Positions 7,901-37,500 of a stretch of DNA of 39,470 bases are shown here, one piece after another. The stretch's first letter is position 1. Each line of letters begins with the position of its first letter. Both the position numbers and the translations under genes were made by a program. The notes under the pieces were generated by a model. That model saw only the letters and a list, made by a program, of their open reading frames with translations, did no database searches and had not been told where the DNA came from. Source of the DNA: Myxococcales bacterium (GTDB taxonomy: Bacteria; Myxococcota_A; Polyangia; Polyangiales; JADJMO01); contig JAJXTK010000001.1 of assembly GCA_021783935.1 (NCBI GenBank), positions 1-39,470 on the forward strand, read 5' to 3'.

Positions 7901-8028
7901 GCTAGCAGGCCGTTGAGAAACGGCCTGCGGAAACTGTGACCGTCAGCAGGCTGTGGTCGATCGCGCGTGGAGATCGCGGCATGACCCGGGAGAGGATCGG
8001 CCGGTCTCGGAGAAACTCCACAGCCTGC
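7901..8028 (+). repeat. copy 1 of a 127/128-nt structured dispersed repeat (MITE-like or small-RNA-like)
   Basis: Matches 29581-29707 in the same orientation, with one 1-nt indel and one substitution (GCGCGTGGAGATCGCGG versus GCGCG-GGAGCTCGCGG). Contains a 10-bp hairpin with a GAGA tetraloop (GCAGGCCGTT-GAGA-AACGGCCTGC) and long-range complementarity GCAGGCTGTGG/CCACAGCCTGC. Confidence 0.85.
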
Positions 8029-8068
8029 CAGGCGGCCTGACCATCGCCGTCTACGAGGGCCAACGCAC

Positions 8069-8108
8069 AAAAGCGCGAACGCGCGCGCGCGGAGGCCATC
8101 ACGCCTCC
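8069..8108 (-). terminator. candidate intrinsic terminator of the RRM-protein gene
   Basis: On the minus strand, after the stop at 8139: hairpin GGAGGC-GTGATG-GCCTCC, then a GCGCG-CGTT-CGCGC hairpin followed by TTTT. Confidence 0.35.
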
Positions 8109-8138
8109 CCGCACGCGCGTGCGCGTGGAATCCGACGT

Positions 8139-8513
8139 TCAGTAGCGCTCGCGACGACCGCCACCCGAGCGGCCACCACCCGAGCGACCGCCGCCACCAC
8201 CACCGCCGCCGAAGCCGCCGCCACCACCACCGCCGCCGAAGCCGCCGCCGCCGCCGCGAGGCGCGCGCTCCTCGGCCTCGTTGACGCGAAGCGGGCGGCC
8301 GTCGAGCAGCGCGCCGTTCATCTCCGAGATGGCCGCGCGGGCCTGCTCGGCGGTCGCGAGCGTGACGAAGCCGAAGCCGCGCGACTGACCCGAATCGCGA
8401 TCGGTGACGACGTGGACGTCGGTCACCTCGCGCCCGTTGGTCGCGAAGGCGGCGAGGAGCGAGTCCTTGGTGGTGTTGAACGAGAGGTTACCGACGTAGA
8501 GGCGAGTGCTCAT
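8139..8513 (-). CDS. RRM-type RNA-binding protein with Gly/Arg-rich C-terminal tail
   Basis: MSTRLYVGNLSFNTT (RNP2) and SRGFGFVTL (RNP1), then GGGGGFGGGGGGGGFGGGGGGGGRSGGGRSGGGRRERY. ATG 8513. Confidence 0.9.
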   Translation of the reverse strand: MSTRLYVGNLSFNTTKDSLLAAFATNGREVTDVHVVTDRDSGQSRGFGFVTLATAEQARAAISEMNGALLDGRPLRVNEAEERAPRGGGGGFGGGGGGGGFGGGGGGGGRSGGGRSGGGRRERY

Positions 8514-8792
8514 GATGTTCTCTTCTTCGCGGCTCGAGGGCGGACGTAACTCGTTCGCGGGTGACCGGCCGTCCAAGTGAGCCGCTACTTGGACAGGGCG
8601 CCGAGGCGAGATCGCCGCGGCCCCACTCGCGTCGTCGAGAAACCGAACCCAGTCCGCGATCCCAGAGAAAAGAGAGCGCGCCAGATGCCGAGTACCAGAC
8701 TTCGTTCGTGAGCGATCGTACGCTAGCGCATCGAGCGCCAGGCGCCACCGAGATCGTCTCGGCGGCGTACGAATTCTCCGACGCGAGCGCGG

Positions 8793-8981
8793 CTACTGGT
8801 CGTCCGCGGGGGGCTGGGGCCCCGGGACGATGTCGGCGATGTCGGGGTCGACGCCCTCCTCGCCGCTGGGCCGGGTGGCCTTCTCCGTCTTGCGACGGAC
8901 GCGGTCGTCGGCCTTCTCCTTGGCGCGCTCCTGACGCGCCTTCTCTTTTTCGCGCTTTCGAAAGGTCGTGCTTCCGGCCAT
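8793..8981 (-). CDS. small (62 aa) highly charged hypothetical protein
   Basis: MAGSTTFRKREKEKARQERAKEKADDRVRRKTEKATRPSGEEGVDPDIADIVPGPQPPADDQ. A strong GAGGAG Shine-Dalgarno sits 3 nt before ATG 8981. It begins 17 nt after the helicase stop. Confidence 0.55.
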   Translation of the reverse strand: MAGSTTFRKREKEKARQERAKEKADDRVRRKTEKATRPSGEEGVDPDIADIVPGPQPPADDQ

Positions 8982-8998
8982 CGTCTCCTCGCTCGGGC

Positions 8999-10300
<1,302 letters not shown>

Positions 10301-10823
10301 AGAGACTCTCGCGCGGCGGGGGAGGCGCGTGCTGCGCATCGGCGGAGCGGTCGACGAAGGGCCGCACCCTCGCGGAACCGTGCAGCGAAGAGCCGCTGCG
10401 AGCTCGTCACCCGATGACCTTCCGCCGACGCGACGCGAGAACCTCGTCGAAGAGCGAGCAGTACAGCCGAACCGAGAAACGCGACCGGGGAGCCTGACGC
10501 CTCCCAAGCCGGGGCGGAGCCTCGCACGCGCCGCGTCGCAGTGCAAACCGGCCCCCGCGCGGAGTCGAGCAATCGAGCCCCGAACGCTCGTCGCGGGCGC
10601 AGCCATGGACGGCGCCGCGACGGCGGGCCGGGGACGACGGTCACACCGCCCCTCGGGCGCCCCACCCGCTGGTGCCCGGCGCCGACGGTCAACGCAGCGA
10701 CCGCGCAGTGCGAGCGCGGCGGTTTGAAGGCAGAGGCGAAGCCGCCGCCCCCGACGTGGGCGTGAGCGCGGAGCGCCGTCGCGATCGGCCGCCGACCAAG
10801 GCACGGACTTCCCTCGCGAAGGA

Positions 10824-17224: not shown

Positions 17225-17261
17225 TCATTCGATGAGCCATCGGCTATGCTGATGGCCACCC

Positions 17262-18170
17262 ATGCTCCCCGAGCGCATCGATCCGCGCCTCTTGCCGACC
17301 TTCCTCGCCGTGCACGAGAGCGGGCGCGTGTCGGCCGCGGCGCGCGCGCTGCACCTCTCGCAGCCCGCCGTCACCGCGCAGATCCGCAGGCTCGAGGACG
17401 AGCTCGGCGTCGCGCTCTTCGTGCGCTCGCCCGCGGGGGTCACGCCGACGGCCGCCGGCGAGCGCCTCGCCGGTTACGCCCGGAAGGTGCAGGCGCTGCT
17501 CGCCGAGGCGGCGACCTCGGTCGCGGGGGCGAAGGAGCCGACGGGCGAGCTCGCGCTGGCTGCGAGCACGACGATCGCGGCCTACGTGCTGCCGCCGGTG
17601 CTCGCGCGCTTTCGCGCCGCGCACCCCGGGGTCCGGCTACGGCTCGACGTCGGCAACACCGAGGAGGTGCTCGCGCTCGTCAAGGCGGGACGCGTGCCGA
17701 TCGGCCTGGTCGAGGGGCACGCGCGCGCCTCGGGGGTGCACCTCGAGCCGTACGCCGACGACGAGATCGTCGCGGTGACGGCGGCGACCGGCGCGACGCC
17801 GCGGGTGCGACGAGCGAGCGATCTCGCGCGCGTGCCGATCCTCTGGCGCGAGCCGGGCTCCGGCACGCGCGCGGTGGTCGAGCGCGCGCTTCGGCGCGCC
17901 GGGATCCGCCGCGGGCCGCTGCCGATCGATCTCGAGATCGGCGGCACCGAGCCGATCCTCGGCGCGGCGGCGGCGGGGCTCGGCGTCGCCTTCGCCTCGC
18001 GCTGGGCGATCCAGTCGCACGTCGCGGCGGGGCGGCTCGCGCCGATCCCCGCGCTCGATCTCGTCATCCGCCGCACCTTCCGGTGGGCCACCGCGGCGGG
18101 CGCGCTGTCGGGCGCCGCGCGCGCCTTCCAGGACTTCGCGCGCCGACACCCGCCGCTGCTCACCGGGTGA
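17262..18170 (+). CDS. LysR family transcriptional regulator
   Basis: N-terminal HTH LPTFLAVHESGRVSAAARALHLSQPAVTAQIRRLEDELGVALFVR plus a C-terminal substrate-binding domain. Divergent from the YeiH-type transporter. Confidence 0.9.
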   Translation: MLPERIDPRLLPTFLAVHESGRVSAAARALHLSQPAVTAQIRRLEDELGVALFVRSPAGVTPTAAGERLAGYARKVQALLAEAATSVAGAKEPTGELALAASTTIAAYVLPPVLARFRAAHPGVRLRLDVGNTEEVLALVKAGRVPIGLVEGHARASGVHLEPYADDEIVAVTAATGATPRVRRASDLARVPILWREPGSGTRAVVERALRRAGIRRGPLPIDLEIGGTEPILGAAAAGLGVAFASRWAIQSHVAAGRLAPIPALDLVIRRTFRWATAAGALSGAARAFQDFARRHPPLLTG

Positions 18171-19902: not shown

Positions 19903-20754
19903 TCAGTGACCGAGCACCACCGAGAGGGCGGCCTTCGTCGCGCGCGGGACGCGCTTCGGATCGGTCATGACGGCGAACTGGCTCGCGCGCCGGCAGGCGC
20001 ACTCGGGGCGATCTTCGAAGGCCGCGATCGTCTTGGAGAGCAGCGCCGTCACGCGGGCGACGTTCTGCTTCATGACCGCGATGGCCGCGTCGGCGGAGAC
20101 CTCCTCGCGATCGCTCCAGCTGTCGTAGTCGGTGACCATGGAGATCGACGCGTAGCAAAGCCCCGCCTCACGCGCGAGGTAGGCCTCCGGGACGTTGGTC
20201 ATGCCGATCACGGCGTGCCCGGCGGCGTGGTTCATGCGGCTCTCGGCGCGCGTCGAGAACTGGGGCCCCTCCATGCAGACGTAGGTGCCGCCGCGGTGGA
20301 GCCGCAGGCGCAGCGCCTTGGCGGCCTCGGCGACGTCGCCCGCGAGCGCGCCGCAGATCGGCTCGGCGAGCGCGACGTGGCCGACGCAGCCGTCGCCGAA
20401 GAAGGTGCTCGCGCGCACCCCCTTGGTGCGGTCGACGTACTGATCGACGAGCACGAAGTCCCCCGGCCGAAGGCGCGCCTGCAGGCTGCCGACCGCGCTC
20501 ACCGACAGGAGGCTCCGAGCGCCGAGCTTCTTCAGCGCCCACACGTTCGCGCGGTAGTTGATCTCGCTCGGCAAGAGCCGGTGTCCGACCCCGTGCCTCG
20601 GCAGGAAGTAGACCGTGCGCCCGTGCAGCTCCCCTTCGACGATCGCGTCGCTCGGGGGGCCGAACGGCGTCGCGATCCGGCGCGCGCGGCGCACGCGGAC
20701 CCCCTCGATCTGCGAGAGGCCGCTCCCACCGATGACGGCCAAGGCGTCGTGCAT
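19903..20754 (-). CDS. mtnP: S-methyl-5'-thioadenosine phosphorylase (MTAP)
   Basis: AVIGGSGL, FLPRHGVGHRLLPSEINYRANVWALKKLG, YVCMEGPQFSTRAES and VIGMTNVPEAYLAREAGLCYASISMVTDYDSW match the MTAP/PNP family. Confidence 0.9.
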   Translation of the reverse strand: MHDALAVIGGSGLSQIEGVRVRRARRIATPFGPPSDAIVEGELHGRTVYFLPRHGVGHRLLPSEINYRANVWALKKLGARSLLSVSAVGSLQARLRPGDFVLVDQYVDRTKGVRASTFFGDGCVGHVALAEPICGALAGDVAEAAKALRLRLHRGGTYVCMEGPQFSTRAESRMNHAAGHAVIGMTNVPEAYLAREAGLCYASISMVTDYDSWSDREEVSADAAIAVMKQNVARVTALLSKTIAAFEDRPECACRRASQFAVMTDPKRVPRATKAALSVVLGH

Positions 20755-20885
20755 GAAGCTGCCTCCGAAGGTCGAGCCGGCCGGGCCGGGCCCGGGTTGG
20801 AGCCGACAATGTGCGCAAAGGTGTCGCCCGCGCGTAGCGCGGCCGAGCGCCGCGAATCATTTCCCGACGCCGAGGCTCTCGCAAG

Positions 20886-22475
20886 GTGATGCCCTCCCCG
20901 TCAACCACGCCGCCGGCGCCCGCCAGGCGCTCCCGCCCGGGCGCGCTCGCGCGCACCAAGGAGCGCGTCGGCCAGTGGCTGATCGACCTCGAGTATCGCC
21001 TGCGCAACGCGCGACCGTTCGCCCACGGCCGCGGCAGCGCGCGCGTGTTCTACCCGGGCTGCTCGCTGCCCGCGGCCGACCCGGAGCTGGTCCTGCGGGC
21101 CTACGAGTGGCTCAAGGCGCGCGACCCGGAGATCGAGCTCTGGTCCGACTGCTGCGGCATGCCGCTCGAGAAGTTCTCGTCGAAGGAGGCGGCGGAGCGT
21201 GGGCGCGCGCAGACCCGCGAGAAGCTGCGCCGCGCGGGCACGACCGAGATCATCACCGCCTGCGGCAACTGCACGGTGCAGTTCCAGTCGCTGAAGGTCC
21301 CGGGGCTCCAGCTCACCTCGCTCTACGGGCTGCTCGCCGAAGAGGACTGGGGCGAGCGCCCGAACGCCGCGCCGAGCGTCGTCCATCACCCGTGCTCGGC
21401 GCGCATCGACAAGGGGCTCCAGGTCGACTTCAAGCGCTTCGCCGATCGGCTCCACCTGAACGTCGTCAACATCGACGATCCGAAGCACCCGCTCTCGTGC
21501 TGCCTCGTGAAGTCCCCGGCCGCGCTCGCCAAGCGCGAGGCGCTCGCCGACAGCCAGCTCGTCACCTACTGCGCGCACTGCACCATGTCCTTCCAGAAGG
21601 ACATCCCGACGCGCCACGTCCTGCAGGAGGTGTTCGGCAAACCCGAGGAGCGCTGGCAGCCCAAGGGGCCGCTCGCGCGCTTCGCCGCCTATCGACGATT
21701 CTCGCAGCTCGCGACCCGCGCCGGCGAGAAGGCCCGAGCGTCCGCGCCCCCGAGCGACGCGCCGTCGGACGGCCGGCTGTCGTGGGGCGCGCGCCTCGCG
21801 ATCGCGGCGCTCGTCGCGGCGGTGCTCGTGATGGTCGCGCGCCACGGCGCGCTCTCGCAGCGCGCGCTGCAGCTCATCGCCTACAGCCGCGACGCGGGGC
21901 CGCTCGGCATCGTCGCGTACGCGCTCGCGTACGTCGTCGCGACCGTGCTGCTCTTGCCCGGCTCGGCGCTCACGCTCGGCGCCGGCTTCGCGTGGGGCCC
22001 GTTCGTCGGGGTCGCGATCGTCTCGCCGGTGAGCGTCGTCGCCGCGACGGCCGCCTTCGCGCTCGGGCGCACGCTCTTGCGCGCGCGCGTCGAGCGCCAC
22101 CTCTCCAAGCACCCGAAGCTCGCCGCGCTCGATCGCGCCGTCGGCGATCACGGTCTGCGGCTCGTGCTGCTGCTGCGCCTGTCTCCCATCGTGCCGTTCA
22201 ACGCGCTCAACTACGCGCTCGCGGCCACGCGCGTGCGGCTCTTCGATTACGTCGTCGGCTCGGCGATCGGGATGCTCCCTGGCACCGTGCTCTACGTCTA
22301 TCTCGGCAGCCTGGTCACCAGCGGCACCGAGCTGCTCGCGGGTCGACCGATGCACTCCGCGGCCGCGACGGCGCTCTACTGGGGCGGCCTGGTCGCGACG
22401 CTGCTGGTCGTCGTGCTGACCACGCGCCTCGCGCGCGCCGAGCTCGACAAGCTCCTCGGACAGGAGGCCCCATGA
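20886..22475 (+). CDS. fusion protein: two HdrB/GlpC-type CCG cysteine-rich domains plus C-terminal TVP38/TMEM64 (DedA-like) membrane domain
   Basis: CCG domain 1: FYPGCSL...DCCGMPL...ACGNCTVQF. CCG-like domain 2: HHPCSAR...LSCCLVK...YCAHCTMSF. The C-terminal half is polytopic, with LLLPGSALTLGAGFAWG...LLLRLSPIVPFNALNYALA, typical of TVP38/SNARE-associated proteins. Starts at GTG 20886 or ATG 20889. Confidence 0.8.
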   Translation: MMPSPSTTPPAPARRSRPGALARTKERVGQWLIDLEYRLRNARPFAHGRGSARVFYPGCSLPAADPELVLRAYEWLKARDPEIELWSDCCGMPLEKFSSKEAAERGRAQTREKLRRAGTTEIITACGNCTVQFQSLKVPGLQLTSLYGLLAEEDWGERPNAAPSVVHHPCSARIDKGLQVDFKRFADRLHLNVVNIDDPKHPLSCCLVKSPAALAKREALADSQLVTYCAHCTMSFQKDIPTRHVLQEVFGKPEERWQPKGPLARFAAYRRFSQLATRAGEKARASAPPSDAPSDGRLSWGARLAIAALVAAVLVMVARHGALSQRALQLIAYSRDAGPLGIVAYALAYVVATVLLLPGSALTLGAGFAWGPFVGVAIVSPVSVVAATAAFALGRTLLRARVERHLSKHPKLAALDRAVGDHGLRLVLLLRLSPIVPFNALNYALAATRVRLFDYVVGSAIGMLPGTVLYVYLGSLVTSGTELLAGRPMHSAAATALYWGGLVATLLVVVLTTRLARAELDKLLGQEAP

Positions 22476-23122
22476 ACGCGCCGATCCCCGTCTGCGTCTT
22501 CGCGAAGCCACCGATCGCCGGCGCCAAGACGCGCTTGTCACGCAAGTACGGCGCGTCGGCCGCCGCGCGCCTCGCCCGCGCCTTCTTCGCAGACGTGTTC
22601 GCGACGGTGCGCGCCCTCCCCTGGGCGCGGCCGATCCTCGCGACCACCACGCGCGACGCGGGCGCCTTCGAGCTCGAAGAGCCGCCCGAGATCTGGCTGC
22701 AGGGCGAGGGCGACCTCGGCGACCGCATGGAGCGCGTGCTCGCCCGCGGCGTCGCCGACGCGGGGCGCGCGATCGTCATCGGAGCCGATCTGCCGGGTCT
22801 TCCGAGCGCGCACCTCGACTCCGCGCGCGAGGCGCTCGCGACGCGCGAGGCGGTGCTCGGGCCCACCGTCGACGGCGGCTTCTACCTGATCGGCCTCTCG
22901 CGCGTGCCGAGCGGCGCGCTCGCCCACCTGCCCTGGAGCCACTACGACACGCTCGCCAAGACGGCCGCGCGGCTCGCCGAGCTCGGCCTCGACGCGGCGC
23001 GCGCGCCGATCTGGTTCGACGTCGATGAGCCGGACGATCTGCCGCGCGTGCGGCGCGTGCTCGAGCGAAACCCCGAGCGGGCGCCGCACACGATGGAGGC
23101 GCTCCTCGCGATGGGCGCCTGA
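22472..23122 (+). CDS. DUF2064 / CofC-like nucleotidyltransferase-fold transferase (the 'rSAM/selenodomain-associated transferase 1', TIGR04282-like)
   Basis: VCVFAKPPIAGAKTRLSRKYG (family signature K-P-x-x-G-x-x-KTRL), IGADLPGLP and GPTVDGGFYLIGLS. Its ATG overlaps the upstream stop as ATGA (22472-22475). Confidence 0.8.
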   Translation: MNAPIPVCVFAKPPIAGAKTRLSRKYGASAAARLARAFFADVFATVRALPWARPILATTTRDAGAFELEEPPEIWLQGEGDLGDRMERVLARGVADAGRAIVIGADLPGLPSAHLDSAREALATREAVLGPTVDGGFYLIGLSRVPSGALAHLPWSHYDTLAKTAARLAELGLDAARAPIWFDVDEPDDLPRVRRVLERNPERAPHTMEALLAMGA

Positions 23123-23802
23123 TGCGCACGTCGATCGTGGTCCCGGTCCTCGACGAGGAGCGGGTGATCGACGCGCGGCTCGCCGAGCTCGAGGCCCTCG
23201 GCGCGCACGAGGTCCTGGTGGCCGACGGCGGGAGCCGCGACGGCACGCTCGCGATCGTGGCACGCCACCCCGGCGTGCGCCTGGTGCACGCGCCGCGCGG
23301 GCGCGCCCTGCAGATGAACGCGGCCGCGCGCGAGGCCACCGGCGAGGCGCTGCTGTTCGCCCACGCCGACGTCGCGCTGCCGGCCGACGCCCTCGAGCAC
23401 GTCGCGCGCGCGCTCGACGACCCGCGCGTCGCGCTGGGGGCCTTTCGCACTTGGACCGTCGCCGATCGACCGACGCGCCTCGGCCCGCTCTTGCACCTCG
23501 CCGATCTGCGATCGCGCCTGAGCTCGCTCCCGTACGGCGATCAGGCGATGTTCATGCGCACCGAGGTCTTCCGGGAGGTCGGCGGCTTCCCGCCCATCGA
23601 GCTCATGGAGGACCTCGCGCTCAGCCGTTCCCTGCGGGCGCGCGGGCGCGTGCGCGTGGTGCCCGCGCGCGTTCGGGTCTCCGGGCGCCGGTTCATCGAG
23701 CGGCCGTTGCTCTACACCGCGATCGTCAACATTTACCCGTTGCTCTACCGGCTCGGCGTGCCGCCGGCGCTGCTCGCCCGCTTCTACCGGGCGGTGCGCT
23801 GA
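23122..23802 (+). CDS. GT2-family transferase (MftF-like; the 'rSAM/selenodomain-associated transferase 2', TIGR04283-like)
   Basis: SIVVPVLDEE, VADGGSRDGT, GRALQMNAAAREATGEALLFAHADVALP, PYGDQAMFMRTEVFREVGGFPPIELMEDLALSRSLR and VSGRRF. Its start overlaps the upstream stop as TGATG. Confidence 0.8.
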   Translation: MRTSIVVPVLDEERVIDARLAELEALGAHEVLVADGGSRDGTLAIVARHPGVRLVHAPRGRALQMNAAAREATGEALLFAHADVALPADALEHVARALDDPRVALGAFRTWTVADRPTRLGPLLHLADLRSRLSSLPYGDQAMFMRTEVFREVGGFPPIELMEDLALSRSLRARGRVRVVPARVRVSGRRFIERPLLYTAIVNIYPLLYRLGVPPALLARFYRAVR

Positions 23803-23855
23803 ACTTTCGCCGGGCAGGGGCAAATCCTTTCGCCGCGCTGCGGCTCGAAGGGCCC

Positions 23856-24086
23856 ATGGCGATCTCGAACTGGCTCGCGACGGTCCCGTGGAACGTCGTC
23901 TTGATGGCGTGCCTGACGCTGGGCCTCGCACCGTTCACGCCCCCGCACATCGTCGAGAAGCTCGGCATGCTCTTCCAGGGCAAGCTGGTGAAGCCCATCG
24001 ATTGGTTCGATCTCTTCCTGCACGGCGCGCCCTGGGTGCTACTGATCGCCAAGGGCATCTTCACCATGGTGGCACGTCCCGCGTGA
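23856..24086 (+). CDS. small (76 aa) two-TM membrane protein
   Basis: MAISNWLATVPWNVVLMACLTLGLAPFTPPHIVEKLGMLFQGKLVKPIDWFDLFLHGAPWVLLIAKGIFTMVARPA. Its stop overlaps the next gene's GTG start (GTGA at 24083-24086). Confidence 0.6.
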   Translation: MAISNWLATVPWNVVLMACLTLGLAPFTPPHIVEKLGMLFQGKLVKPIDWFDLFLHGAPWVLLIAKGIFTMVARPA

Positions 24087-26566
24087 GCCAAGCGTCCCTC
24101 GGTTTCTCGGCCGAGACGGTGCTCCACACCCCGGCGCTGACGCGCTGGAGCACCGATGACGGGGTCTTCCTCGCGCTCGACGCCGAGGCGCCCAACTGGA
24201 TCGCCACCGACGAGCGGGGCGCACAGGTGCTCGCGCTCCTCGACGGTCGGCGCACGCTCGGCGAGGTCGCCACCCGCGCGCGGCTCTACCCCGACCTCGC
24301 CAAGGGCCTGCAGCACGTGATGTCGTTCGCGCAGGCGCTCCTGCGGGCCGGGATCGCCGCGCGCGCGCCGTTCGTCCGCCCGGCCTACGGCGGGCGCGCC
24401 GAGCGGCTCGGCGAGTGGTCGCTGCGGGAGATGTGGCTGCACACGAACGACGCGTGCAACCTCTCGTGCGAGCACTGCCTGGTCTCGTCGGGGCCCAAGG
24501 GCTCGCGCGGCCTGCCGAGCGAGACGCTCCTCGACGCCGTCGATCAGGCCGCCGCGCTCGGCGTCGAGACCTTCTTCTTCACCGGCGGCGAGCCGTTCTT
24601 GCGCCCCGACCTCGCCGCGCTCGTCGCGCGCGTCACCGCGCACCACGAGCGTCCGCTCGTCATCCTCACCAACGCGACGCTCTTCGACAAGCCGGCCTAC
24701 CGCGAGCTGCTCGCGCCCTTCGATCGCAAGAAGGTGCGCTTCCAGGTCTCGCTCGACGGCACCTGCCCCGAGGAGAACGACCCGATTCGCGGCGCCGGCA
24801 CCTTCGAGAAGGCCTCGGCGGGGCTCGCCCTGCTCGCCTCGCTCGGCTTCGAGACGTCGCTCACGCTCGTCCCCCACCGCAAGAACCTCGCGAGCCTCGC
24901 GGCGCTGCCGGCGATCGCCGAGCGGCTCGGCGCCGCGTCGGTCCACCTGATGTGGCCGCACCGGCGCGGGCGCGCGCTCTCGATGCTCGAGGAGCTGCCG
25001 TCGGTCGAGGAGCTCGTCACGGCGACGCGGGCGGTGCGCGACGCCGCGGAGGCGATCGGCGTTCGCCTCGACAACGTCGAGAGCCTCTTGCAGCGCGTGA
25101 ACGCGGTGCCCGACGTGAAGCATGATCTCGGCATGGCCGGCGTCGAGGCGCTCTGCCTGCACGCAGACGGCGTGCTCTACCCGTCGGCGGCGACGGCGGG
25201 GATCGAGGCGCTCGCGATCGGCAAGCTCGGCCAGCGCGGGCTGCTCGAGGTCTGGCGCGGCTCGGCGGTGGCCAACGAGCTGCGCGCGACGAGCCTCGCC
25301 AAGAGCCCCGCGCTGCTCGGCGATCCGCTGCGCTTCGTCACCGGCGGCGGCGACCTCGAGCACGCCTACTTCTGGAGCGGCTCGTTCCTCGGCGGCGATC
25401 CGTACGCGCCCCTCTACGCCGCGCTCGCGCGCGACCTGATGGCCGATCTCGGGCGCAAGGGGCGCGCGCGCGCCACGCGGCGCCCGGCAGGCGACGCGCC
25501 GATCATCTTCCACGCGATGGGCGAAGGGGCGCTCGCCTGCGGCGACGAGCTGCCCGGCGCGGTGCGCACGCTCCACTCCAACTGCGTGCTCGCCTTCGAC
25601 GTCGACCGCCCGCGCGCGCTGATGCGCGCCTTCTACGGCGCCGCGGCCGTCGCGCCGAAGCCGACCTTGTGCTGCCCGGTGCGCCCGCCCGAGGAGGACC
25701 TGCAGCACGTCCCGAAGGACGTCGTCGATCGCTTCTACGGCTGCGGATCGCCGGTGCAGGACGCCGCCCTCGCGCGCGGCGAGACGCACCTCGATCTCGG
25801 CTCCGGGGCGGGCATCGACGTCTTCGTCGCGGCCAAGCACGTCGGCCCCGAGGGGCGCGCCATCGGCGTCGACATGACCGACCCGATGCTCGCGGTCGCG
25901 CGCGAGAACCAGCCGATCGTCGCGCAGAACCTCGGCTACGACGTGGTCACCTTCCGCAAGGGGCTGCTCGAGGCGGTGCCGCTCGGCGACGGCGAGGTCG
26001 ACTGCGTGACCTCCAACTGCGTGGTCAACCTCTCGCCCGACAAGCGCGCGGTCTTCGCCGAGATCTGGCGGGTCTTGAAGGACCACGGGCGGCTCGTGCT
26101 CGCGGACATCGTCGCCGAGCGCGTCGTGCCGCCGCACCTGCGCGTGAACCCGGAGCTCTGGGGCGAGTGCCTCTCGGGCGCGCTCACCGAGGACGAGCTG
26201 CTCGCCGAGCTCGAACGCGCGGGGTTCTGCGGCGTCGAGATCCTCAAGCGCACCTACTGGCGCGAGGTGCAGGGGCACACCTTCTTCTCCGTCACCGTGC
26301 GCGCCTTCAAGCACGAGGAGCGCCGCCGCACCTTCACCGGCCAGCTCGCCGTCTACCTCGGGCCGCACAAGAGCGTGACCGACGAGGAGGGGACGCTGTA
26401 TCGGCGCAACGAGCCGGTCGAGGTCTCGACCGACGTCGCGGCGCGCCTGCTCCGCGCGCCGTACGCGGGCTCGTTCCGCGTCCAAGAGCCCTCCGGCGAG
26501 TCGACGCTCGCGCCCGCCTCGAGCGCGCCGAAGCCCCTCGACGCCGGCGGCCGCTGCTGCTCCTGA
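24083..26566 (+). CDS. four-domain fusion: PqqD/RRE-like + radical SAM + Cys-depleted SPASM-like + ArsM-type As(III) SAM methyltransferase
   Basis: N-terminus: WIATDERGAQVLALLDGRRTLGEVATRA...VMSFAQALLRAGI (PqqD-like). Radical SAM: NDACNLSCEHC (CxxxCxxC), FFFTGGEPFLRPD, FQVSLDG, IRGAGTF. SPASM scaffold with ligands lost: LCLHADGVLYPS...IGKLGQ...FVTGGGDLEHAYF. ArsM domain: LCCPV, FYGCGSPV, HLDLGSGAGIDVF, AIGVDMTDPML, TSNCVVNLSPDK, LWGECLSGA. C-terminal GGRCCS. Confidence 0.85.
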   Translation: MSQASLGFSAETVLHTPALTRWSTDDGVFLALDAEAPNWIATDERGAQVLALLDGRRTLGEVATRARLYPDLAKGLQHVMSFAQALLRAGIAARAPFVRPAYGGRAERLGEWSLREMWLHTNDACNLSCEHCLVSSGPKGSRGLPSETLLDAVDQAAALGVETFFFTGGEPFLRPDLAALVARVTAHHERPLVILTNATLFDKPAYRELLAPFDRKKVRFQVSLDGTCPEENDPIRGAGTFEKASAGLALLASLGFETSLTLVPHRKNLASLAALPAIAERLGAASVHLMWPHRRGRALSMLEELPSVEELVTATRAVRDAAEAIGVRLDNVESLLQRVNAVPDVKHDLGMAGVEALCLHADGVLYPSAATAGIEALAIGKLGQRGLLEVWRGSAVANELRATSLAKSPALLGDPLRFVTGGGDLEHAYFWSGSFLGGDPYAPLYAALARDLMADLGRKGRARATRRPAGDAPIIFHAMGEGALACGDELPGAVRTLHSNCVLAFDVDRPRALMRAFYGAAAVAPKPTLCCPVRPPEEDLQHVPKDVVDRFYGCGSPVQDAALARGETHLDLGSGAGIDVFVAAKHVGPEGRAIGVDMTDPMLAVARENQPIVAQNLGYDVVTFRKGLLEAVPLGDGEVDCVTSNCVVNLSPDKRAVFAEIWRVLKDHGRLVLADIVAERVVPPHLRVNPELWGECLSGALTEDELLAELERAGFCGVEILKRTYWREVQGHTFFSVTVRAFKHEERRRTFTGQLAVYLGPHKSVTDEEGTLYRRNEPVEVSTDVAARLLRAPYAGSFRVQEPSGESTLAPASSAPKPLDAGGRCCS

Positions 26567-26640
26567 GCGAGACCACGATCGGTCGCGACCGCCGCGAAGC
26601 TCCGTCGCGATGGTCGGCGTCCAGCGCACATCTGCAGTGC

Positions 26641-27015
26641 ATGGACACACTCGACCGCCTGCCCGTCCCGGTGGTCGCGCCCGTCCTCGTGCGCGCGGTC
26701 GACGGACTGCCGCTCGGGGATCCGGAGCGATCCCTGCTCGCCTACTTCGACGGCCTGCACACGATCGACGAGATCGCCAGCGAGAGCGGGAGCTCCGCGC
26801 TGCAGGTGCGCGCGCTCGTCTCGGATCTCGTCTGGTTCGGCGCCGTCGCGCTCGAGGAGGTGATGCAGGTCGCCGAAGGCGAGCTCTTCGCGAACGAGCC
26901 GGAACAGCTCACGCCAGGCTGCGAGATCGCGGCGCGGGCGCCGGCGCGCCCCTCGGCGACCGACGCGTCGATCGAGGCGGCGCTGCGCACGCTCCTCGAC
27001 AAGTACGACGCGTGA
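26641..27015 (+). CDS. hypothetical protein (124 aa)
   Basis: ATG 26641: MDTLDRLPVPVVAPVLVRAVDGLPLGDPERSLLAYFDGLHTIDEIASESGSSALQVRALVSDLVWFGAVALEE.... Plausible composition and GC3. It lies 74 nt downstream of the fusion gene. The family is not recognised. Confidence 0.5.
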   Translation: MDTLDRLPVPVVAPVLVRAVDGLPLGDPERSLLAYFDGLHTIDEIASESGSSALQVRALVSDLVWFGAVALEEVMQVAEGELFANEPEQLTPGCEIAARAPARPSATDASIEAALRTLLDKYDA

Positions 27016-27057
27016 GCAGGCCAGGCGCGCGAGCGCCTCGACGCCACGCCGAGCGTC

Positions 27058-28149
27058 TCAGCTGCCGCAGCGCGCCCCGCGCACCTCGCCGAGCGCGCGG
27101 GCGATCGCGACCGAGTCCTGCTCGCCGACCAGGCGATCGACCTCGCCGCCCGCCGCGTCGACCGACACGAAGGTCGGCACCACGCGCACGCCGTAGCGCG
27201 AGGCGAGGCCGGCGCCGTTCGGATCGTCGACGCGCACGCGCAGGACGCTCTCGGCAGCGTCGCACGAGCGGGCGACCCGCTCGAGCACCGGGGCCATGCG
27301 GGCGCAGACGACGCAGTGGTCGCTCACGAACTCGACCAGGCGCGGCTTGCCCGTGATCGCCTCCGCGCTCGGCGCGCCGAGCGTGGGGATCGCCGCGGCG
27401 CACGCCGACGCGGAGGCCGAGGTCGCGCAGTCGCTGGTCGCGACGGCCGCGGGCGCCGCTGCCTTGGGGGTGAGCGCGGCGAGGCGATCGGTGGCGAGCA
27501 GCACGCCGACCGCCACGAGCACGCCGCCGGTCACTCGCTGCAAGCGCGCGCCGGCGCTGGCGAAGCGCCGGACGATCGGCACGATCCTCGAGGCGGCGAA
27601 GGCAGCCGCGACGAGCGGCGTCGCGAGCCCCGCGGCGTAGGCGGCGAGCTGCGCGCCCGCGATCCACGGGCTCGCGCTGGTGCTCGCGGCGTACGTCAGC
27701 GCCGCGCCGAGCACCGGCCCCACGCACGGCGTCCAGCCGACCGCGAAGGCCGCGCCGAACAATAGGCCGCCGAAGAAGCCGCCCGGCGTGGGGATGCGCT
27801 CGAGCAGCGGGCGTCGCTCCGCATGCAGACCGGGGAGCTTGATGACGTCGAGCAGCTGGACGCCGAAGAGGATCATCACGCCGCCGGCGACCCACCCGAA
27901 CGCCCGCCGGTGCGCGAGCAGCGGCGCGGCCAAGAGCGACGCGAAGACGCCGAGCACGATGAAGACCGCCGCGAGCCCTATCGCGAAGCCGAGCCCCGCT
28001 CGACGTAGGCGACCTGGCCGCGCGACGCCGTCGGTCGCCGCCGCGCCGCCGAGCAGCGCGACGTAGACGGGCAGCAACGGCAACACGCACGGCGAAGCGA
28101 AGGTGAGAAGCCCCGCGCCGTACAGAGCGAGGGCGCCACCGATGGACAT
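27058..28149 (-). CDS. CcdA/DsbD-type thiol:disulfide transfer membrane protein fused to a C-terminal thioredoxin-like domain
   Basis: LTFASPCVLPLLPVYVALLGG and WTPCVGPVLGAAL (the two CcdA cysteines). C-terminal EFVSDHCVVCARMAPVLE (CxxC). GAGGAGGAG RBS before ATG 28149. Confidence 0.85.
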   Translation of the reverse strand: MSIGGALALYGAGLLTFASPCVLPLLPVYVALLGGAAATDGVARPGRLRRAGLGFAIGLAAVFIVLGVFASLLAAPLLAHRRAFGWVAGGVMILFGVQLLDVIKLPGLHAERRPLLERIPTPGGFFGGLLFGAAFAVGWTPCVGPVLGAALTYAASTSASPWIAGAQLAAYAAGLATPLVAAAFAASRIVPIVRRFASAGARLQRVTGGVLVAVGVLLATDRLAALTPKAAAPAAVATSDCATSASASACAAAIPTLGAPSAEAITGKPRLVEFVSDHCVVCARMAPVLERVARSCDAAESVLRVRVDDPNGAGLASRYGVRVVPTFVSVDAAGGEVDRLVGEQDSVAIARALGEVRGARCGS

Positions 28150-28167: not shown

Positions 28168-28599
28168 TCAGTCGAGCGCGACGTCGACGTCGACCGAGAT
28201 GCCGGCCCGGACCGACTGCGTCACGATGCAGAACTCCTCGAAGCTCGGGATGCAGGCCTGCACGGCCGCGCCGTCGGCGCCCGGCGCGTGGACCGTGACG
28301 TGGATCTTTCCGATTCGCAGGCGCTTGTGCTCGTTGCGCACGATCTCGACCTCGACGTCCGATCGCACGCCGGTGAGCGCGGCCCCCTTCTTCTTCGCGC
28401 AGAACACGAGGCTCGCAGCGAGGCAGTTGCCGACCGCCGCCGCGAGCACGCGCGCCGCGTTCGGGGCGGCGTCGCGGCCGAGGGGCGCCGGCTCGTCGAG
28501 CGTGATCGCCGCGTGCTGCGGCTTGTCGAAGCGCACGCGGAACTCGTACTGGTCGAGCTGCTCGACGGCGATTGCGAACTTCTGCACGACCTCGCTCAT
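28168..28599 (-). CDS. OsmC/Ohr family peroxiredoxin-like protein
   Basis: ATG 28599 (MSEVVQKF...) with a GGGAGAA RBS. AAAVGNCLAASLVFC and FEEFCIVTQSV are the two OsmC-family cysteines. Confidence 0.85.
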   Translation of the reverse strand: MSEVVQKFAIAVEQLDQYEFRVRFDKPQHAAITLDEPAPLGRDAAPNAARVLAAAVGNCLAASLVFCAKKKGAALTGVRSDVEVEIVRNEHKRLRIGKIHVTVHAPGADGAAVQACIPSFEEFCIVTQSVRAGISVDVDVALD

Positions 28600-28802
28600 G
28601 GGTGGGTTCTCCCTTCGTACTCTGTGTCCGAGCCACGCACGGCCTTGCGGGGTTCGCCCGGCGCGTCGAACGAGAGTACGCGGCGTGGCCGCCATGGGCT
28701 TCGCGGCGCGGCTCGGGGCCCCGACCCGAACCCTTCGGCGATCTCGCAGGCTCCCAGCGCGCGAGGTCTCCGCCGCGAGGGAAGAGCTGCGATGTCACAC
28801 AC

Positions 28803-30418: not shown

Positions 30419-30666
30419 TCGCGGCCTCGTCCTCCCCAGCGCTCCGCGACGCGGCGCGCTCGAACCCTTCCTCGCGCGAGCGGCTCCCACTCCACGAGCG
30501 GGCGCGCTCCACGCCGTACGTCGTCGCTGGTCCCCCGGTCTTCGGCGTTTCGTGATCCTCCCCTCCGGGCGCGCCCGCTCACCTAGCTTCGTCACCGGCG
30601 ACGCTCACCGCCGCCGAGCGCCCCGACGCGCGCCGCACGCGCGCTCTCACCCTCTTCGGAGGTCTC

Positions 30667-31686
30667 ATGCTCGCCCGCATCGAGAAGGCGACCGCCTTCG
30701 TCAGCACCCACCTGACCAAGTTCATCCTCGCGGTCATGGTCCTCGGGCTCCTCAACGCCTACTTCCTGGGCGGGATCCCGTTCAACCTCGCAATCTGCGC
30801 GACCGCGTCGTTCCTGATGATTTACCCGATGTTCATCAACCTGAAGATCGGGGACATCGTCGAGGGGAAGAACCACAAGGCGGCGCTGCTGCTGAGCCTC
30901 GTGCTCAACTTCGCGCTCTCGCCGGCGCTCGCGTGGGGGCTCGGCAAGCTGTTCCTCGCGGACCAGCCCTACATGGCCTTGGGCCTCGTGCTGATCTCAC
31001 TGATCCCGACGAGCGGCATGACGGCGACCTGGACCGAGCGCTCCAAGGGCAACCTCAAGGTCGCGCTCTCGATCATCGCCGTGAGCCTGCTGGTGGTGAT
31101 CCTCGCGCTGCCGCTCGTGCTCCCGCGCATGGCGGGCAACCTGATGAGCGCGGGGCCGTTCTTCATCTTCCAGCGGATCCTGATGGTCATCGTGATCCCG
31201 CTGGTGCTCGGCGACGTCACGCGCCGGATCATCGTCGCGAAGAAGGGGCAGCCCTACTACAAGTCGAAGAAGCCGCTGTTCTCGGGCCTCAGCAGCACCG
31301 GCCTGTTGTTCGTGCTCTTCCTGATCATGTCGCTGAGCGCCAACAAGCTGCTGGTCACCAACGCCGCGCTCGTCGTCAAGGGGGTCGTCCCGCTGCTCAT
31401 CTACTACGTGGTCATGTTCGGCACGAGCACGCTGCTCTCGCGGGGCTTCGGCCACGGCGTCTCGACGGCGATCGTCTACGGCACCTCGGTGCGCTACCTC
31501 GCCCTCGCGCTCGGAATCGCGGTCCCGCTGCTCGGCAGCGGCAAAGAGAGCAGCCTCGTGGTCTTCGTCGTCGCGCTCGCGTTCTTCATCCAGGTGCCGG
31601 CGGCGTCGCTCTACGCGAAGTGGGTCACGCGGCGCGCGCCTGCCCCCACGACGCCTCCCGCCCAAGCGGCGACGGGCACCGCGTAG
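30667..31686 (+). CDS. ACR3/BASS-superfamily permease (ACR3-like, lacking the ACR3 cysteine)
   Basis: Ten-TM-like hydrophobic profile. MIYPMFINLKIGD and LISLIPTSGMTATWTERSKGN resemble the ACR3 segments (mYPmm.kv; PC[TI]AMV.vW..la.Gd), but with T-S-G in place of C-T-A. GGAGG RBS 5 nt before the ATG. Confidence 0.75.
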   Translation: MLARIEKATAFVSTHLTKFILAVMVLGLLNAYFLGGIPFNLAICATASFLMIYPMFINLKIGDIVEGKNHKAALLLSLVLNFALSPALAWGLGKLFLADQPYMALGLVLISLIPTSGMTATWTERSKGNLKVALSIIAVSLLVVILALPLVLPRMAGNLMSAGPFFIFQRILMVIVIPLVLGDVTRRIIVAKKGQPYYKSKKPLFSGLSSTGLLFVLFLIMSLSANKLLVTNAALVVKGVVPLLIYYVVMFGTSTLLSRGFGHGVSTAIVYGTSVRYLALALGIAVPLLGSGKESSLVVFVVALAFFIQVPAASLYAKWVTRRAPAPTTPPAQAATGTA

Positions 31687-32034: not shown

Positions 32035-32238
32035 GCGTCATTGATGCTCCTTGAAGGCCGCACGCGCAAGCCTCTATTGCCGCGGCAGCTTGCCGATCGG
32101 CGCCCCGTCGGTCGGCCCGCCGGAGGGGGCGTCGCCACCGGCGTGGGGCCCCGCCGGGGCGACGCGCCGGAGGCGAGCCGAATTGATGGGCCTCGGCCTT
32201 GAGGCGCGCCCCCCACGCGCCAAACTCGACGCCGACGC

Positions 32239-33420
32239 GTGCAGAACGAGCCCGACCGACGCCCGAGCATCACGAGCGGCGCCATCTTCCGCCTCGCCCT
32301 GTACTACGGCATCGCGGGGTTCGGCGGCGGCTACTCGGTGCTGGCGCAGCTGCGCCACGAGCTCGTCGAGCAGCGGCGATGGATCGAGGCCGAGGAGTTC
32401 CTCGTCCTGGCCGAGCTCTCGAAGAGCCTCCCCGGCACCCCCGCGACGAGCCTGCTCGCGCTCTTGGGGCAGCGCGTCGGCGGCGTACGCGGCGGAGTCG
32501 TCGCCGCGACCGCGTTCCTGCTGCCGAGCATGGCGCTGATGACCGCCGCGGGGGCGGCCTACTCGCTCATGCGCGGCGCGAACGCCCTCGCGTCGTTCTT
32601 CGACGGCATGAACGCGGCCATGGTGGGCGTGGTCGCCGCGACGACGGTGGACCTCGGGCGCACCGCCCTGCGCGGCCGCTGGGACGTGGTCGCCGCGATC
32701 GGCGCGGCCCTCGCGCTCGCCACGCGGGTCACGAGCGAGCCGCTGCTCGCCGCCGGCGCGATCGGCGTGGGGGTGGCCATGGGCGCGCGCCGCGCTCCCC
32801 CGCGCTCGCAGGTGCCCGACCAGGAGGGGGCGGGCAACGGACTGCACGCGATCGCCTTGCTGCCGCTGCTTGTGGGCGCCGGCGCCGGGGCGCTCGCGGG
32901 GCTGGTGCGCGTCTTCGTGCCGATCGGCATCGCGACGTTCGGCGGCGGGCTCGCCATGGTCCCGGCGATCGAGCACACCGTCGTCGTCGAGGAGCACTGG
33001 CTCGGACCCAAGACCTTCGCCGACGCCGTCGCGCTCGGGCAGATCACCCCCGGGCCCATCGCGATCTGCGCCACGTTCATCGGCTACCGCGTCGGCGGGC
33101 TGCTCGGGGCGCTCATCGCCACGATCGCGATGTTCGGCCCCGCGATCGCGCTGGCCCTCGTCGTCGGCCACTCGATCGAGCGCTTCCGCAGCAGCCCACT
33201 CGTGCAGGGGGCGCTGCGCGCGCTCGCCCCGGCGGTGATCGGCATGCTCGCGGCCGCCACCTGGAGCCTCGGCCGCGCGGGGATCGCGGGGTGGTTCGAC
33301 GCGGGCGTCGGGCTCGTGGCCTTCGGCGTCCTCGCCCGATCGAAGGTCAGCCCGCTCTGGCTGCTGGTCGGCGGCGGGCTCGCGCGCGTGGCGCTCTCGC
33401 TGATCGGGCACCACGGCTGA
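32239..33420 (+). CDS. chrA: chromate ion transporter (CHR family, two-domain ChrA)
   Basis: Two CHR repeats: GIAGFGGGYSVLAQLRHELVEQRRWI...LPGTPAT and IATFGGGLAMVPAIEHTVVVEEHWL...LGQITPGPI. GTG start at 32239. Confidence 0.9.
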   Translation: MQNEPDRRPSITSGAIFRLALYYGIAGFGGGYSVLAQLRHELVEQRRWIEAEEFLVLAELSKSLPGTPATSLLALLGQRVGGVRGGVVAATAFLLPSMALMTAAGAAYSLMRGANALASFFDGMNAAMVGVVAATTVDLGRTALRGRWDVVAAIGAALALATRVTSEPLLAAGAIGVGVAMGARRAPPRSQVPDQEGAGNGLHAIALLPLLVGAGAGALAGLVRVFVPIGIATFGGGLAMVPAIEHTVVVEEHWLGPKTFADAVALGQITPGPIAICATFIGYRVGGLLGALIATIAMFGPAIALALVVGHSIERFRSSPLVQGALRALAPAVIGMLAAATWSLGRAGIAGWFDAGVGLVAFGVLARSKVSPLWLLVGGGLARVALSLIGHHG

Positions 33421-36249: not shown

Positions 36250-37461
36250 TCAGTACAGGGCGATCTCCCCCGCGAGGATCGCCCGCCGCGTCTGCTCGAT
36301 CTGCGCGAGGCCACGCTCGACGACGCGGTGCACGGCGCCCCGCTCCGCGGCGCTCGGCGCCGCGCCGGCACGAGGGGTGAGTCGCACGTGGGCGAGCGCC
36401 GGCTGATCGATGGGCGCGCCGATGCGGCTCACGAGCAGCACGTCGGCGGCCGCGATGGCGCCGCCCACCTCGACGACCTGCGCGGCGAGCGAGTGCGCGA
36501 GCACGCCGTACAGCTTGCCCACGTGCGAGACGGCGTTCTTGCCGGCCGCGGCCTCCATCGTCATCGGACGCCCCGGCGTGATGAGGCCGCCGACCCGGTT
36601 GCCGCGGCCGACCTCGCCGTCGTCGCCCGCCTCGGCCGAGGTGCCGGTGACGGTCAGATACACCTCGCCGCGGGGGAGATCGTCGGCGGCGTTCACCGAC
36701 AGCTCGACCTCGTCCAACGCGCCGTCGGCGGCCTCTCGCGCGGCGGCGCGCGCGAGCGACGAGATGAGCTCCTTCGCCTCGGCGTAGTGCGCGAGCGAGC
36801 GCAGCGAGCGACCGACCATGGCGCACGCGATCGTGAGCGAGAGCCGGCGACCCTGGCGCACGGCGAGCACCTTGAGATCTTCCCCCACGAACGCGGACTC
36901 GGGGACGCGCGCGGCGGCTCGGAGCACGCGGTCGATCGCGAGCACCACGCGCTCGGTCGGCGTGCGCGGCGCCGACCCGACGCCGATCGAGGTGTCGTTC
37001 GCGCGCGGCACCGCGGCGTGCCCTCGCCCGAAGAGCGCGCGCAGCTCGCTCGATCCAGGCCGCAGGCGCGGCCGGATGCGCACCTCGCGCGCGACGTCGA
37101 GCGCGTGCACGGAGGCGCGTAGAACGTCGGCCGCGGCCTGACGGACCAGCTCCTCGAGGGCCTCGCTCGTGTCCCCCTCCGCGAGCGACGCGCGCCCGGC
37201 GAGGTCGATCTCGATCGGCGCGAGGACCTCGCCGCCGCCGAAGGCCGCGCGCGCGCGGCCGCCCACGAGCAGCGCTTTGTCGACGTTGAAGTGGAGGATC
37301 TCGCCGTGGCGCTCGAGGTAGTGACGGGAGAGCGCGCGCGCAGCGCGCTCGGCCACCGCGTCGCAGAGCGTGTCGGGGTGACCGATCCCCTTTCGCTCGA
37401 CGACCTCGACCGCCTGCCGATCCGGCGTCGGCCCCGACCCGAGCTCGATCGTGATCTCCAT
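36250..37461 (-). CDS. archaeal-type S-adenosylmethionine synthetase (methionine adenosyltransferase, PF01941-like)
   Basis: [47 protein letters not shown] and [56 protein letters not shown]. These match, block for block, my recollection of Methanocaldococcus MAT (ERKGLGHPDSICD ... [51 protein letters not shown]). Confidence 0.9.
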   Translation of the reverse strand: [403 protein letters not shown]

Positions 37462-37500
37462 GCAGAGCCTCGCAGCAAGCGGCGCGCCTGGCCCGCCTCG

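Follow-up and report, generated by a model that had tools for sequence, protein, structure and literature searches.

The DNA analysed here, referred to below as the window, is a whole stretch of 39,470 nucleotides from a Myxococcales bacterium, and at positions 24083-26566 of its forward strand lies a gene encoding an 827-aa fusion protein (P0001), which probably takes part in organoarsenical biosynthesis. Four domains follow one another in this protein: a PqqD-like recognition element (RRE) of the type that serves ribosomally synthesized and post-translationally modified peptides (RiPPs), a radical S-adenosylmethionine (SAM) core, a degenerate SPASM domain and an arsenite methyltransferase of the ArsM type. 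This four-domain composition had been proposed in an earlier note on the window, made from the sequence alone, and was borne out when each domain was tested separately with Pfam, HMMER and Foldseek.

The reading frame is uninterrupted and is the coding frame indicated by the GC content of the codon positions, in a window with 70-76% G+C throughout. The gene starts with a GTG codon overlapping the TGA stop of a 76-aa open reading frame (ORF) on its 5' side (gcGTGAgc). Identical copies of the 827-aa protein were recorded from more than one source (NCBI, Logan), and its 90% cluster includes an 827-aa member from an ENA contig. The architecture recurred in more than 100 homologues, about 810-840 aa long, which covered 96-100% of the fusion protein. 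Together, the intact frame, the identical records and the homologues of the same architecture exclude a frameshift or assembly artefact, the frameshift being what the earlier note had named as fatal to its reading. The fusion is real. A promoter and terminator scan of positions 20600-27200 found neither and was uninformative at 73% GC.

Domains and conserved cysteines of the fusion protein

The ArsM part (residues about 513-812, 25619..26518, forward strand, as for all features of this gene) begins with cysteine loops that contain C530/C531 and C554; next comes a class I SAM methyltransferase fold, in which C646 and C696 lie, and then the C-terminal domain of ArsM. Pfam Methyltransf_31 matched the query with E=2e-27, HMMER aligned it to 5evj and 4fr0 with E-values of 1e-35 to 1e-38 and up to CmArsM residue 326, and Foldseek matched it to CmArsM (4fsd) with E=1.6e-21. 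In the HMMER alignment to the solved structures, C530 corresponded to C46 of CrArsM and C554 to C72 of CmArsM, with C646 and C696 corresponding to C174 and C224. The four cysteines named in the earlier note as As(III) ligands therefore fall on metal-site positions, which in CmArsM are C44, C72, C174 and C224, and all of them, together with C531, were invariant in 117 homologues. By this alignment the domain lacks none of the four As(III)-binding cysteines and is complete; methylation activity is predicted. None of the NCBIfam models reached its cutoff for the fusion protein, and the ArsM part stayed under all curated ArsM cutoffs (PRK11873, 223.9 vs 263; NF040538, 184 vs 500; NF038099, 146 vs 400).

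The ArsM part is followed by a tail predicted to be disordered (residues 813-827 and the stop codon, 26519..26566), which ends in a Cys-Cys pair (C825, C826). This pair had also been noticed before and is 97-98% conserved; the tail reads 'GCC' in most members and 'RCCS' in the query. The pair was considered as a fusion-specific, ArsL-like tail and rejected as such, because the stand-alone ArsMs of ArsS clusters also end in CC; judging from these sequences, the terminal CC is a feature of this ArsM clade. Two further cysteine pairs were present in most homologues outside the subgroup of the query: C749/C782, with perfect co-occurrence (82 with both, 35 with neither), and C379/C430, which mostly co-occur (60 with both, 41 with neither). 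The subgroup of the query represents the minimal cysteine set.

The radical SAM core (residues about 113-335, 24419..25087) carries C125-x3-C129-x2-C132, GGEP at residues 168-171 and VSLDG at residues 222-226. Pfam PF04055 matched the query with E=7.6e-22 and 78.7 bits against a cutoff of 29.5, the three cysteines were conserved in 99% of homologues and T167-G-G-E-P171 was invariant. With CxxxCxxC, GGE and PF04055 above threshold, the protein belongs to the radical SAM superfamily, and the PqqE/anSME-style core read from the sequence was substantiated.

A SPASM-fold domain (residues about 340-465, 25100..25477) lies C-terminal to the barrel. With the full-length AlphaFold2 (AF2) model (pLDDT 86.5, pTM 0.84) as the query, the Foldseek matches next after ArsM were CteB (479 columns, TMt 0.69) and TigE (481 columns, TMt 0.71), further matches being SuiB, SkfB, anSME and PqqE; against anSME, the TMt was 0.74-0.76. 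Pfam SPASM matched 28 of 60 homologues. In an HMMER alignment the SPASM cysteine positions of PqqE fell on D348, S368, A/G, D424 and E426, and for the seven-Cys auxiliary [4Fe-4S] motif no family column held a Cys at the PqqE-aligned positions. With these positions replaced family-wide, no member retains the canonical ligands of the auxiliary clusters; D348, D424, E426 and H427 are invariant. The earlier description of a SPASM scaffold stripped of its cysteines was thus right as to the canonical ligands but not as to the region, which retains the invariant C358, C486 and C501. The cysteine of CLHADGVLYPS, C358, had been taken for the first SPASM ligand. This was ruled out by the PqqE alignment, which placed it elsewhere, in a hairpin and at a non-canonical position. 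The accompanying inference that the mechanism differs from that of thioether or C-C crosslinking maturases appears reasonable.

The other two of these cysteines lie in a conserved junction between the SPASM-fold and ArsM domains (residues about 466-512, 25478..25618), which reads 'HAMGEGALAC(486)G...TLHSNC(501)VLAFDVDRPRA'. An internal repeat was detected here: the junction segment TLHSNCVLAFDVDRPRA (25565-25618, residues 495-512) copies the arsenic-binding loop of the ArsM domain, VTSNCVVNLSPDKRA (26003-26050, residues 641-656). The second half of the junction motif resembles VTSNC(646)VVNLSPDKRA of the ArsM loop, with duplication of an SNCV...DKPR motif, and the invariant C501 thus sits in a second 'SNC' motif. 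In the query the repeat was marginal, with a local alignment score of 45 against 30.1 +/- 6.0 for shuffled sequences, 18 of 1000 of which reached 45. In a Thermoanaerobaculia homologue it was significant (54.5 against 27.9 +/- 5.3, reached by 0 of 1000). The duplicated motif, the three extra invariant cysteines and the genomic context described below were all missed in the earlier note.

The N-terminal domain (residues about 12-95, 24116..24367) was assigned as a PqqD/RRE-fold winged helix from its AF2 model, Foldseek comparison and family conservation. Pfam PqqD (PF05402) gave E=0.78 and 10.6 bits on the query, below the threshold of 23.4, and a 21-sequence profile of residues 1-112 found no match among PDB sequences; among homologues, 22 of 60 matched PqqD at E<=0.05, with a best E of 1.5e-5. 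Detection at the sequence level failed for the query and for the PDB profile, and the identity of the domain was settled by fold comparison only. The AF2 model of residues 1-112 (pLDDT 89.8) has a beta3-alpha3 topology, three strands (19-23, 29-33 and 38-42) followed by three helices (44-52, 59-66 and 72-89). Its best Foldseek matches were leader-peptide-binding RREs, namely TbiB1 with its leader bound, lasso B1, PqqD 5sxy, TigE, CteB and TruD/LynD, with a TMt of 0.68-0.71 for TbiB1, lasso B1 and PqqD and, for 5sxy, a TMq of 0.61 over 91 columns at a root-mean-square deviation of 2.7 A. The modelled structure confirms the RRE fold, in agreement with the reading of residues about 1-100 given before. 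Three of its residues, P37, W39 and G46, are the same in all members of the family.

Such a domain brings to mind a RiPP-type maturase, the possibility preferred in the earlier note, in which the RRE would dock a leader and a ribosomal peptide would be modified, for example by arsenic- or methyl-dependent chemistry on Cys. The reality of the fold and its resemblance to leader-binding RREs speak in favour of it, as do the position of the invariant P37 and W39 on the leader-binding edge strand, the superposition of the N-terminal 500 residues on CteB, SuiB, TigE and SkfB, and the small ORF translationally coupled to the gene in the window and in its closest relatives. The loss of the auxiliary-cluster ligands of peptide maturases speaks against it, as does the content of the neighbourhood.

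Gene neighbourhood and distribution of the family

The fusion gene is the last of a tightly packed, translationally coupled run on the forward strand. The run begins with a fusion of a CCG domain (HdrB-like, Cys-rich) and a VTT/DedA membrane domain (20889..22475), followed by a DUF2064 CofC-like transferase (22472..23122; TIGR04282, 150 bits, cutoff 134) and a family 2 glycosyltransferase, GT2 (23122..23802; TIGR04283, 200 bits, cutoff 182), both families bearing the name 'arsenosugar biosynthesis glycosyltransferase'. The 76-aa ORF (23856..24086), coupled to the fusion gene by the GTGA overlap, encodes a predicted two-helix membrane protein. Divergently oriented and adjoining the operon upstream is a gene for S-methyl-5'-thioadenosine (MTA) phosphorylase (19903..20754, reverse strand; TIGR01694, 296 bits, cutoff 275). 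No ArsS was found in the window among 35 ORF translations compared with NCBIfam, a scan outside which 7943-10822 and 1-1896 lay. CCG and VTT are separate genes in other loci, or a MerA-like flavoprotein accompanies VTT instead, an arrangement that suggests an interchangeable disulfide-reductase partner.

A genome scan with one genome per species gave hundreds of matches. The total of 583 may include stand-alone ArsMs, as one search pattern lay in the ArsM part, and full length was verified for the best 80 loci. These had nearly full-length coverage, all came from metagenome-assembled genomes (MAGs) and spanned about ten bacterial phyla or candidate phyla, the taxa being Thermoanaerobaculia, Holophagales, Gemmatimonadota, Elusimicrobiota, Nitrospirota, Nitrospinota, Omnitrophota, Planctomycetes and Myxococcota/'Deltaproteobacteria'. 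The 80 MAGs (L007-L086) originated from soil, groundwater and sediment, with no cultured isolate among them.

Within 6 kb of the fusion gene, DUF2064 was present in 42 of the 80 loci, a PHO4/PiT transporter in 40, VTT in 29, GT2 in 17 and a MerA-like flavoprotein in 15, while a second radical SAM gene was found in only two and a second ArsM in four. The gene order of the window was repeated in Archangium, and its genes were also present in a MAG of Elusimicrobia and in one further contig from a metagenome. The PHO4/PiT gene, absent from the window, usually follows the fusion gene directly on its 3' side, in some loci with an overlap (e.g., L003 12460-13542); its best NCBIfam matches in that locus were the sulfate permease CysP and PitA, both far under cutoff, and the transporter suggests coupling to arsenate or phosphate uptake. 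In six related loci, a thioredoxin-type ArsC-like ORF was tentatively assigned by reading the sequence.

A precursor-like ORF of 25-90 aa, conserved within 2.5 kb of the gene, was searched for in the 80 loci and none was found; only low-complexity ORFs in alternative frames clustered. The 76-aa protein had no Pfam or NCBIfam family match and occurred in just 3 of the 80 loci. It shared 67-72% identity, with 80% mean column identity, with the copies beside the fusion gene in L002 and L006, and was thus more conserved than the enzyme (62-67% identity in the same loci) and, being two-helix and membrane-like, unlike a precursor. The genes conserved around the fusion, for transferases, a transporter and reductases of the arsenosugar type of gene set, belong to small-molecule metabolism, transport and redox. 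The peptide substrate suggested earlier is therefore unsupported, and the alternative in the same note, a co-opted RRE, fits better given that no precursor ORF is conserved. The RRE is probably a structural or intramolecular docking module and not a leader-peptide receptor. Intramolecular docking is a guess; in the AF2 model the C-terminal tail is disordered.

Homologues of the GT2 gene of the window (61-63% identity) were found in clusters with separate ArsM and ArsS genes: ArsM, ArsS, PHO4, VTT, Pyr_redox, DUF2064 and GT2 or, in a second arrangement, ArsM, DUF547, ArsS, MTA phosphorylase, VTT, Pyr_redox, DUF2064 and GT2. ArsS is the TIGR04167 radical SAM protein with DUF3641, and in the Synechocystis-type pathway it leads to 5'-deoxy-5'-dimethylarsinoyl-adenosine. 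The ArsS of the comparison clusters matched TIGR04167 with 440 bits against a cutoff of 300. Since the accessory set is the same and the fusion stands where ArsM and ArsS stand, the replacement of ArsM plus ArsS by one polypeptide best explains the arrangement. Two canonical ArsM + ArsS clusters (L087 1577-8705 and L088 758-8726) contain PHO4, VTT, a MerA-like flavoprotein, DUF2064 and GT2, the latter cluster additionally MTA phosphorylase and DUF547; the stand-alone ArsMs of both end in Cys-Cys. The C-terminus of ArsS in these two clusters appears to carry a SPASM/twitch-like pattern, C-x8-DG-x-LYDC ... HCFGCTAGxGSSC, when its sequence is read by eye.

When the N-terminal 502 residues were the only query, nearly all proteins retrieved were fusions of this architecture. 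A search with a profile of the SPASM-like domain and junction against 1.84 billion representatives gave 125 proteins at E<=1e-10, mostly full-length fusions or their fragments, besides a few of about 475-480 aa that stand alone and a set of about 950-1080 aa. This module is thus almost never encountered unfused. The longer set is a sister architecture (P0289, P0290, P0295, P0311), in which the radical SAM and ArsM parts are followed by a C-terminal DUF5714; in Archangium, DUF5714 is encoded by a gene of its own just 3' of the fusion gene (L002 13365-14108), and it is absent from the window. One homologue of 849 aa (P0044) carries a GT2 domain (PF00535) in the same predicted protein as the radical SAM and methyltransferase parts, representing either a further fusion, to the glycosyltransferase gene next door, or a merged gene call. 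Homologues are named at NCBI only as 'methyltransferase domain-containing protein', and literature searches for a radical SAM-ArsM fusion, DUF2064 and arsenosugar cluster genes found no relevant paper. This is a large family without a curated model or a paper found, seen so far only in uncultured bacteria.

Several other genes of the window were also recorded. A methionine adenosyltransferase gene (PRK04439, 456 bits, cutoff 435) is located at 36253-37500 on the reverse strand, about 10 kb from the fusion, itself a putative user of three SAM per product. Redox and oxyanion genes surround the cluster at 27058-28149 and 28168-28620 on the reverse strand and at 30556-31686, 32203-33420 and 17253-18170 on the forward strand. 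They include genes for a fusion of a DsbD transmembrane part with thioredoxin, for an OsmC-like protein and for a LysR regulator, as well as two for transporters, one of chromate and the other weakly ACR3-like (89 bits vs 283).

Proposed function and competing explanations

The fusion protein is proposed to be a bifunctional enzyme of organoarsenical biosynthesis, doing as one polypeptide what ArsM and ArsS do as two, a proposal that we regard as more likely than not. In the first step, the ArsM domain would bind As(III) on its four conserved cysteines and methylate it with SAM to methyl- and then dimethylarsenite. Without being set free, the trivalent methylated arsenical would then move to a site formed by thiols at the radical SAM domain, for which C358, C486 and C501 are the candidates. 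Of these, C501 lies within the duplicated arsenic-binding loop. The Cys-Cys pair of the mobile tail may be involved as well. The single [4Fe-4S] cluster on C125/C129/C132 would then reductively cleave another SAM, and a carbon radical, most likely 5'-deoxyadenosyl, would add to arsenic. As has been reported for ArsS, the arsenic-centred radical would give its electron back to the same cluster. ArsS adenosylates dimethylarsenite in a redox-neutral reaction, in which the 5'-deoxyadenosyl radical is added and the arsenic-centred radical reduces [4Fe-4S]2+ (PMC13598754). A redox-neutral addition of this kind needs no auxiliary clusters and would therefore account for the loss of the SPASM ligands. 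How arsenic might be held in their place is illustrated by ArsL, in which As(III) is held by tail cysteines and not by an auxiliary cluster (bioRxiv 10.1101/2024.02.01.577332).

Phosphorolysis of the product, 5'-deoxy-5'-dimethylarsinoyl-adenosine, would fall to the MTA phosphorylase encoded beside the operon. The presence of this enzyme in both cluster types fits such a step, because the adenosyl-arsenical is an analogue of MTA. MTA itself is made neither by ArsM, which yields S-adenosylhomocysteine, nor by an ArsS-type reaction. The DUF2064 nucleotidyltransferase-like protein might then activate the sugar phosphate and GT2 transfer the arsenoribose, which is conjecture, and the VTT/DedA and CCG proteins may provide for handling at the membrane and for the reduction of thiols. 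The RRE-fold domain would have been kept from a peptide-maturase ancestor.

Several observations weigh against this proposal. The radical SAM module is not a member of ArsS: it scored 74 bits against the 300 required by TIGR04167, over model positions 6-151 of 303 only, and BLASTP to true ArsS gave 30% identity over 163 aa, confined to the core. The choice between a 5'-deoxyadenosyl and a 3-amino-3-carboxypropyl radical cannot be made from sequence. The roles of TIGR04282 and TIGR04283 are NCBI family names and thus putative functions; within 6 kb, moreover, DUF2064 is missing from about half of the loci and GT2 from most. MTA phosphorylase was found near the fusion gene only in the window, in L006 and in one further locus. 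Finally, the strong conservation of the RRE, with its invariant P37, W39 and G46, is not explained by the proposed model.

A bolder version of the proposal would give the RRE a role. According to it, the family would be a third, independently evolved lineage of C-As-forming radical SAM enzymes, derived from a RiPP maturase, in which a thiol arsenic site (C501, C358 and C486, partly from the duplicated ArsM loop) replaced the auxiliary clusters. The RRE would dock a part of its own protein, e.g., the As-carrying Cys-Cys tail, and the toxic intermediate would be channelled between two SAM-dependent sites. If this were true, the substrate would be presented as a maturase presents its peptide. We regard this version as speculative and rather unlikely.

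Improbable, too, is a different radical reaction or element, with the enzyme reducing or activating pentavalent arsenicals or acting on species of selenium, antimony or tellurium, which enzymes of the ArsM type can methylate as well. The radical SAM module falls in no characterised family, all its NCBIfam matches being far under cutoff, and the invariant D348, D424, E426 and H427 could make a new metal or substrate site. TIGR04282 and TIGR04283 were originally termed 'rSAM/selenodomain-associated' (JGI names), and the LysR regulator at 17253-18170 best resembles a 'selenium metabolism-associated' family, although below cutoff (189 vs 250 bits). However, the four-Cys As(III) site is fully conserved and, in clusters that match in all other respects, the gene occupies the place of ArsM plus ArsS; the putative ArsC-like ORF of the six related loci also points to arsenic.

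The chances of an ArsL-like reaction seem slim. Here SAM would be cleaved at its C-gamma-S bond, a 3-amino-3-carboxypropyl radical would be transferred to arsenic and an arsinothricin-like amino acid would then be methylated by ArsM. The ArsM part matched the arsinothricin ArsM model NF040538 through its C-terminus, with the 184 bits given above, the conserved Cys tail of the query ('RCCS') recalls the RCCLKC tail with which ArsL binds As(III), and MTA, the by-product of ArsL, could be cleared by the neighbouring phosphorylase. Against this, the 25 best NCBIfam matches for the radical SAM half did not include NF040542, the tail is mostly 'GCC' and not RCCLKC, and the stand-alone ArsMs of ArsS clusters share the CC end. 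The accessory genes are, furthermore, those of ArsS clusters, and the nucleotidyltransferase-like protein and glycosyltransferase would have no role in arsinothricin synthesis. RiPP-type maturation, with no conserved precursor gene among small-molecule neighbours and its auxiliary ligands gone, is very improbable.

Relation to known systems and meaning

In this family, the known organoarsenical system of ArsM and a radical SAM enzyme appears in a new form, with the scaffold of a RiPP maturase. As in the ArsM + ArsS system, a four-Cys ArsM with a terminal CC is paired with a CxxxCxxC radical SAM enzyme and accompanied by PHO4/PiT, VTT/DedA, a disulfide reductase, DUF2064/TIGR04282, GT2/TIGR04283 and MTA phosphorylase. 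In contrast to that system, the fusion is one polypeptide and not two, has three new invariant cysteines and bears a duplicated ArsM loop at its junction. Its radical SAM core shares with that of ArsS, within the 163 aligned residues, the motif CN(L/M)xCxHCxVxxGPK, and the genomic association of ArsS with ArsM, TIGR04282 and TIGR04283 was found for it as well. Unlike ArsS with its Cys-rich DUF3641, the fusion has an N-terminal RRE and a Cys-depleted SPASM fold.

With the RRE-radical SAM-SPASM maturases CteB (5why/5wgg), SuiB (5v1q-t), TigE (8vpo) and SkfB (6efn), the protein shares the order and fold of domains over about 480 columns, with a TM-score of up to 0.71. It differs from them in its replaced SPASM cysteines, its fused ArsM and its small-molecule cluster without a conserved precursor gene nearby. 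It resembles ArsL as a radical SAM protein working with ArsM, with non-cluster cysteines implicated in holding arsenic and a Cys-bearing C-terminal tail, but no relation to ArsL appeared among the best family matches, the tail motif is different and belongs to the ArsM part, and the gene context is another one. CmArsM, CrArsM and human AS3MT have the same fold, SAM motifs, four cysteines and C-terminal domain and lack the 510-residue N-terminal radical SAM extension of the fusion.

The only radical SAM enzymes known to make C-As bonds are ArsS and ArsL. With its different scaffold, the fusion family is a strong candidate to be the third. As a natural fusion it links arsenic methylation physically to a putative radical alkylation, which makes the channelling of toxic trivalent arsenicals directly testable. 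The persistence of the RRE and SPASM domains outside peptide maturation, with the SPASM ligands gone, bears on functional change in radical SAM enzymes. The shared accessory set (MTA phosphorylase, DUF2064, GT2, DedA and PiT) offers candidates for the uncharacterised steps of arsenosugar synthesis that follow the adenosyl-arsenical. The family occurs widely among uncultured phyla of soil and groundwater, including Thermoanaerobaculia, Gemmatimonadota, Elusimicrobiota, Nitrospirota, Omnitrophota and Myxococcota, which suggests that organoarsenical production is far wider among bacteria than the work on cyanobacteria implies.

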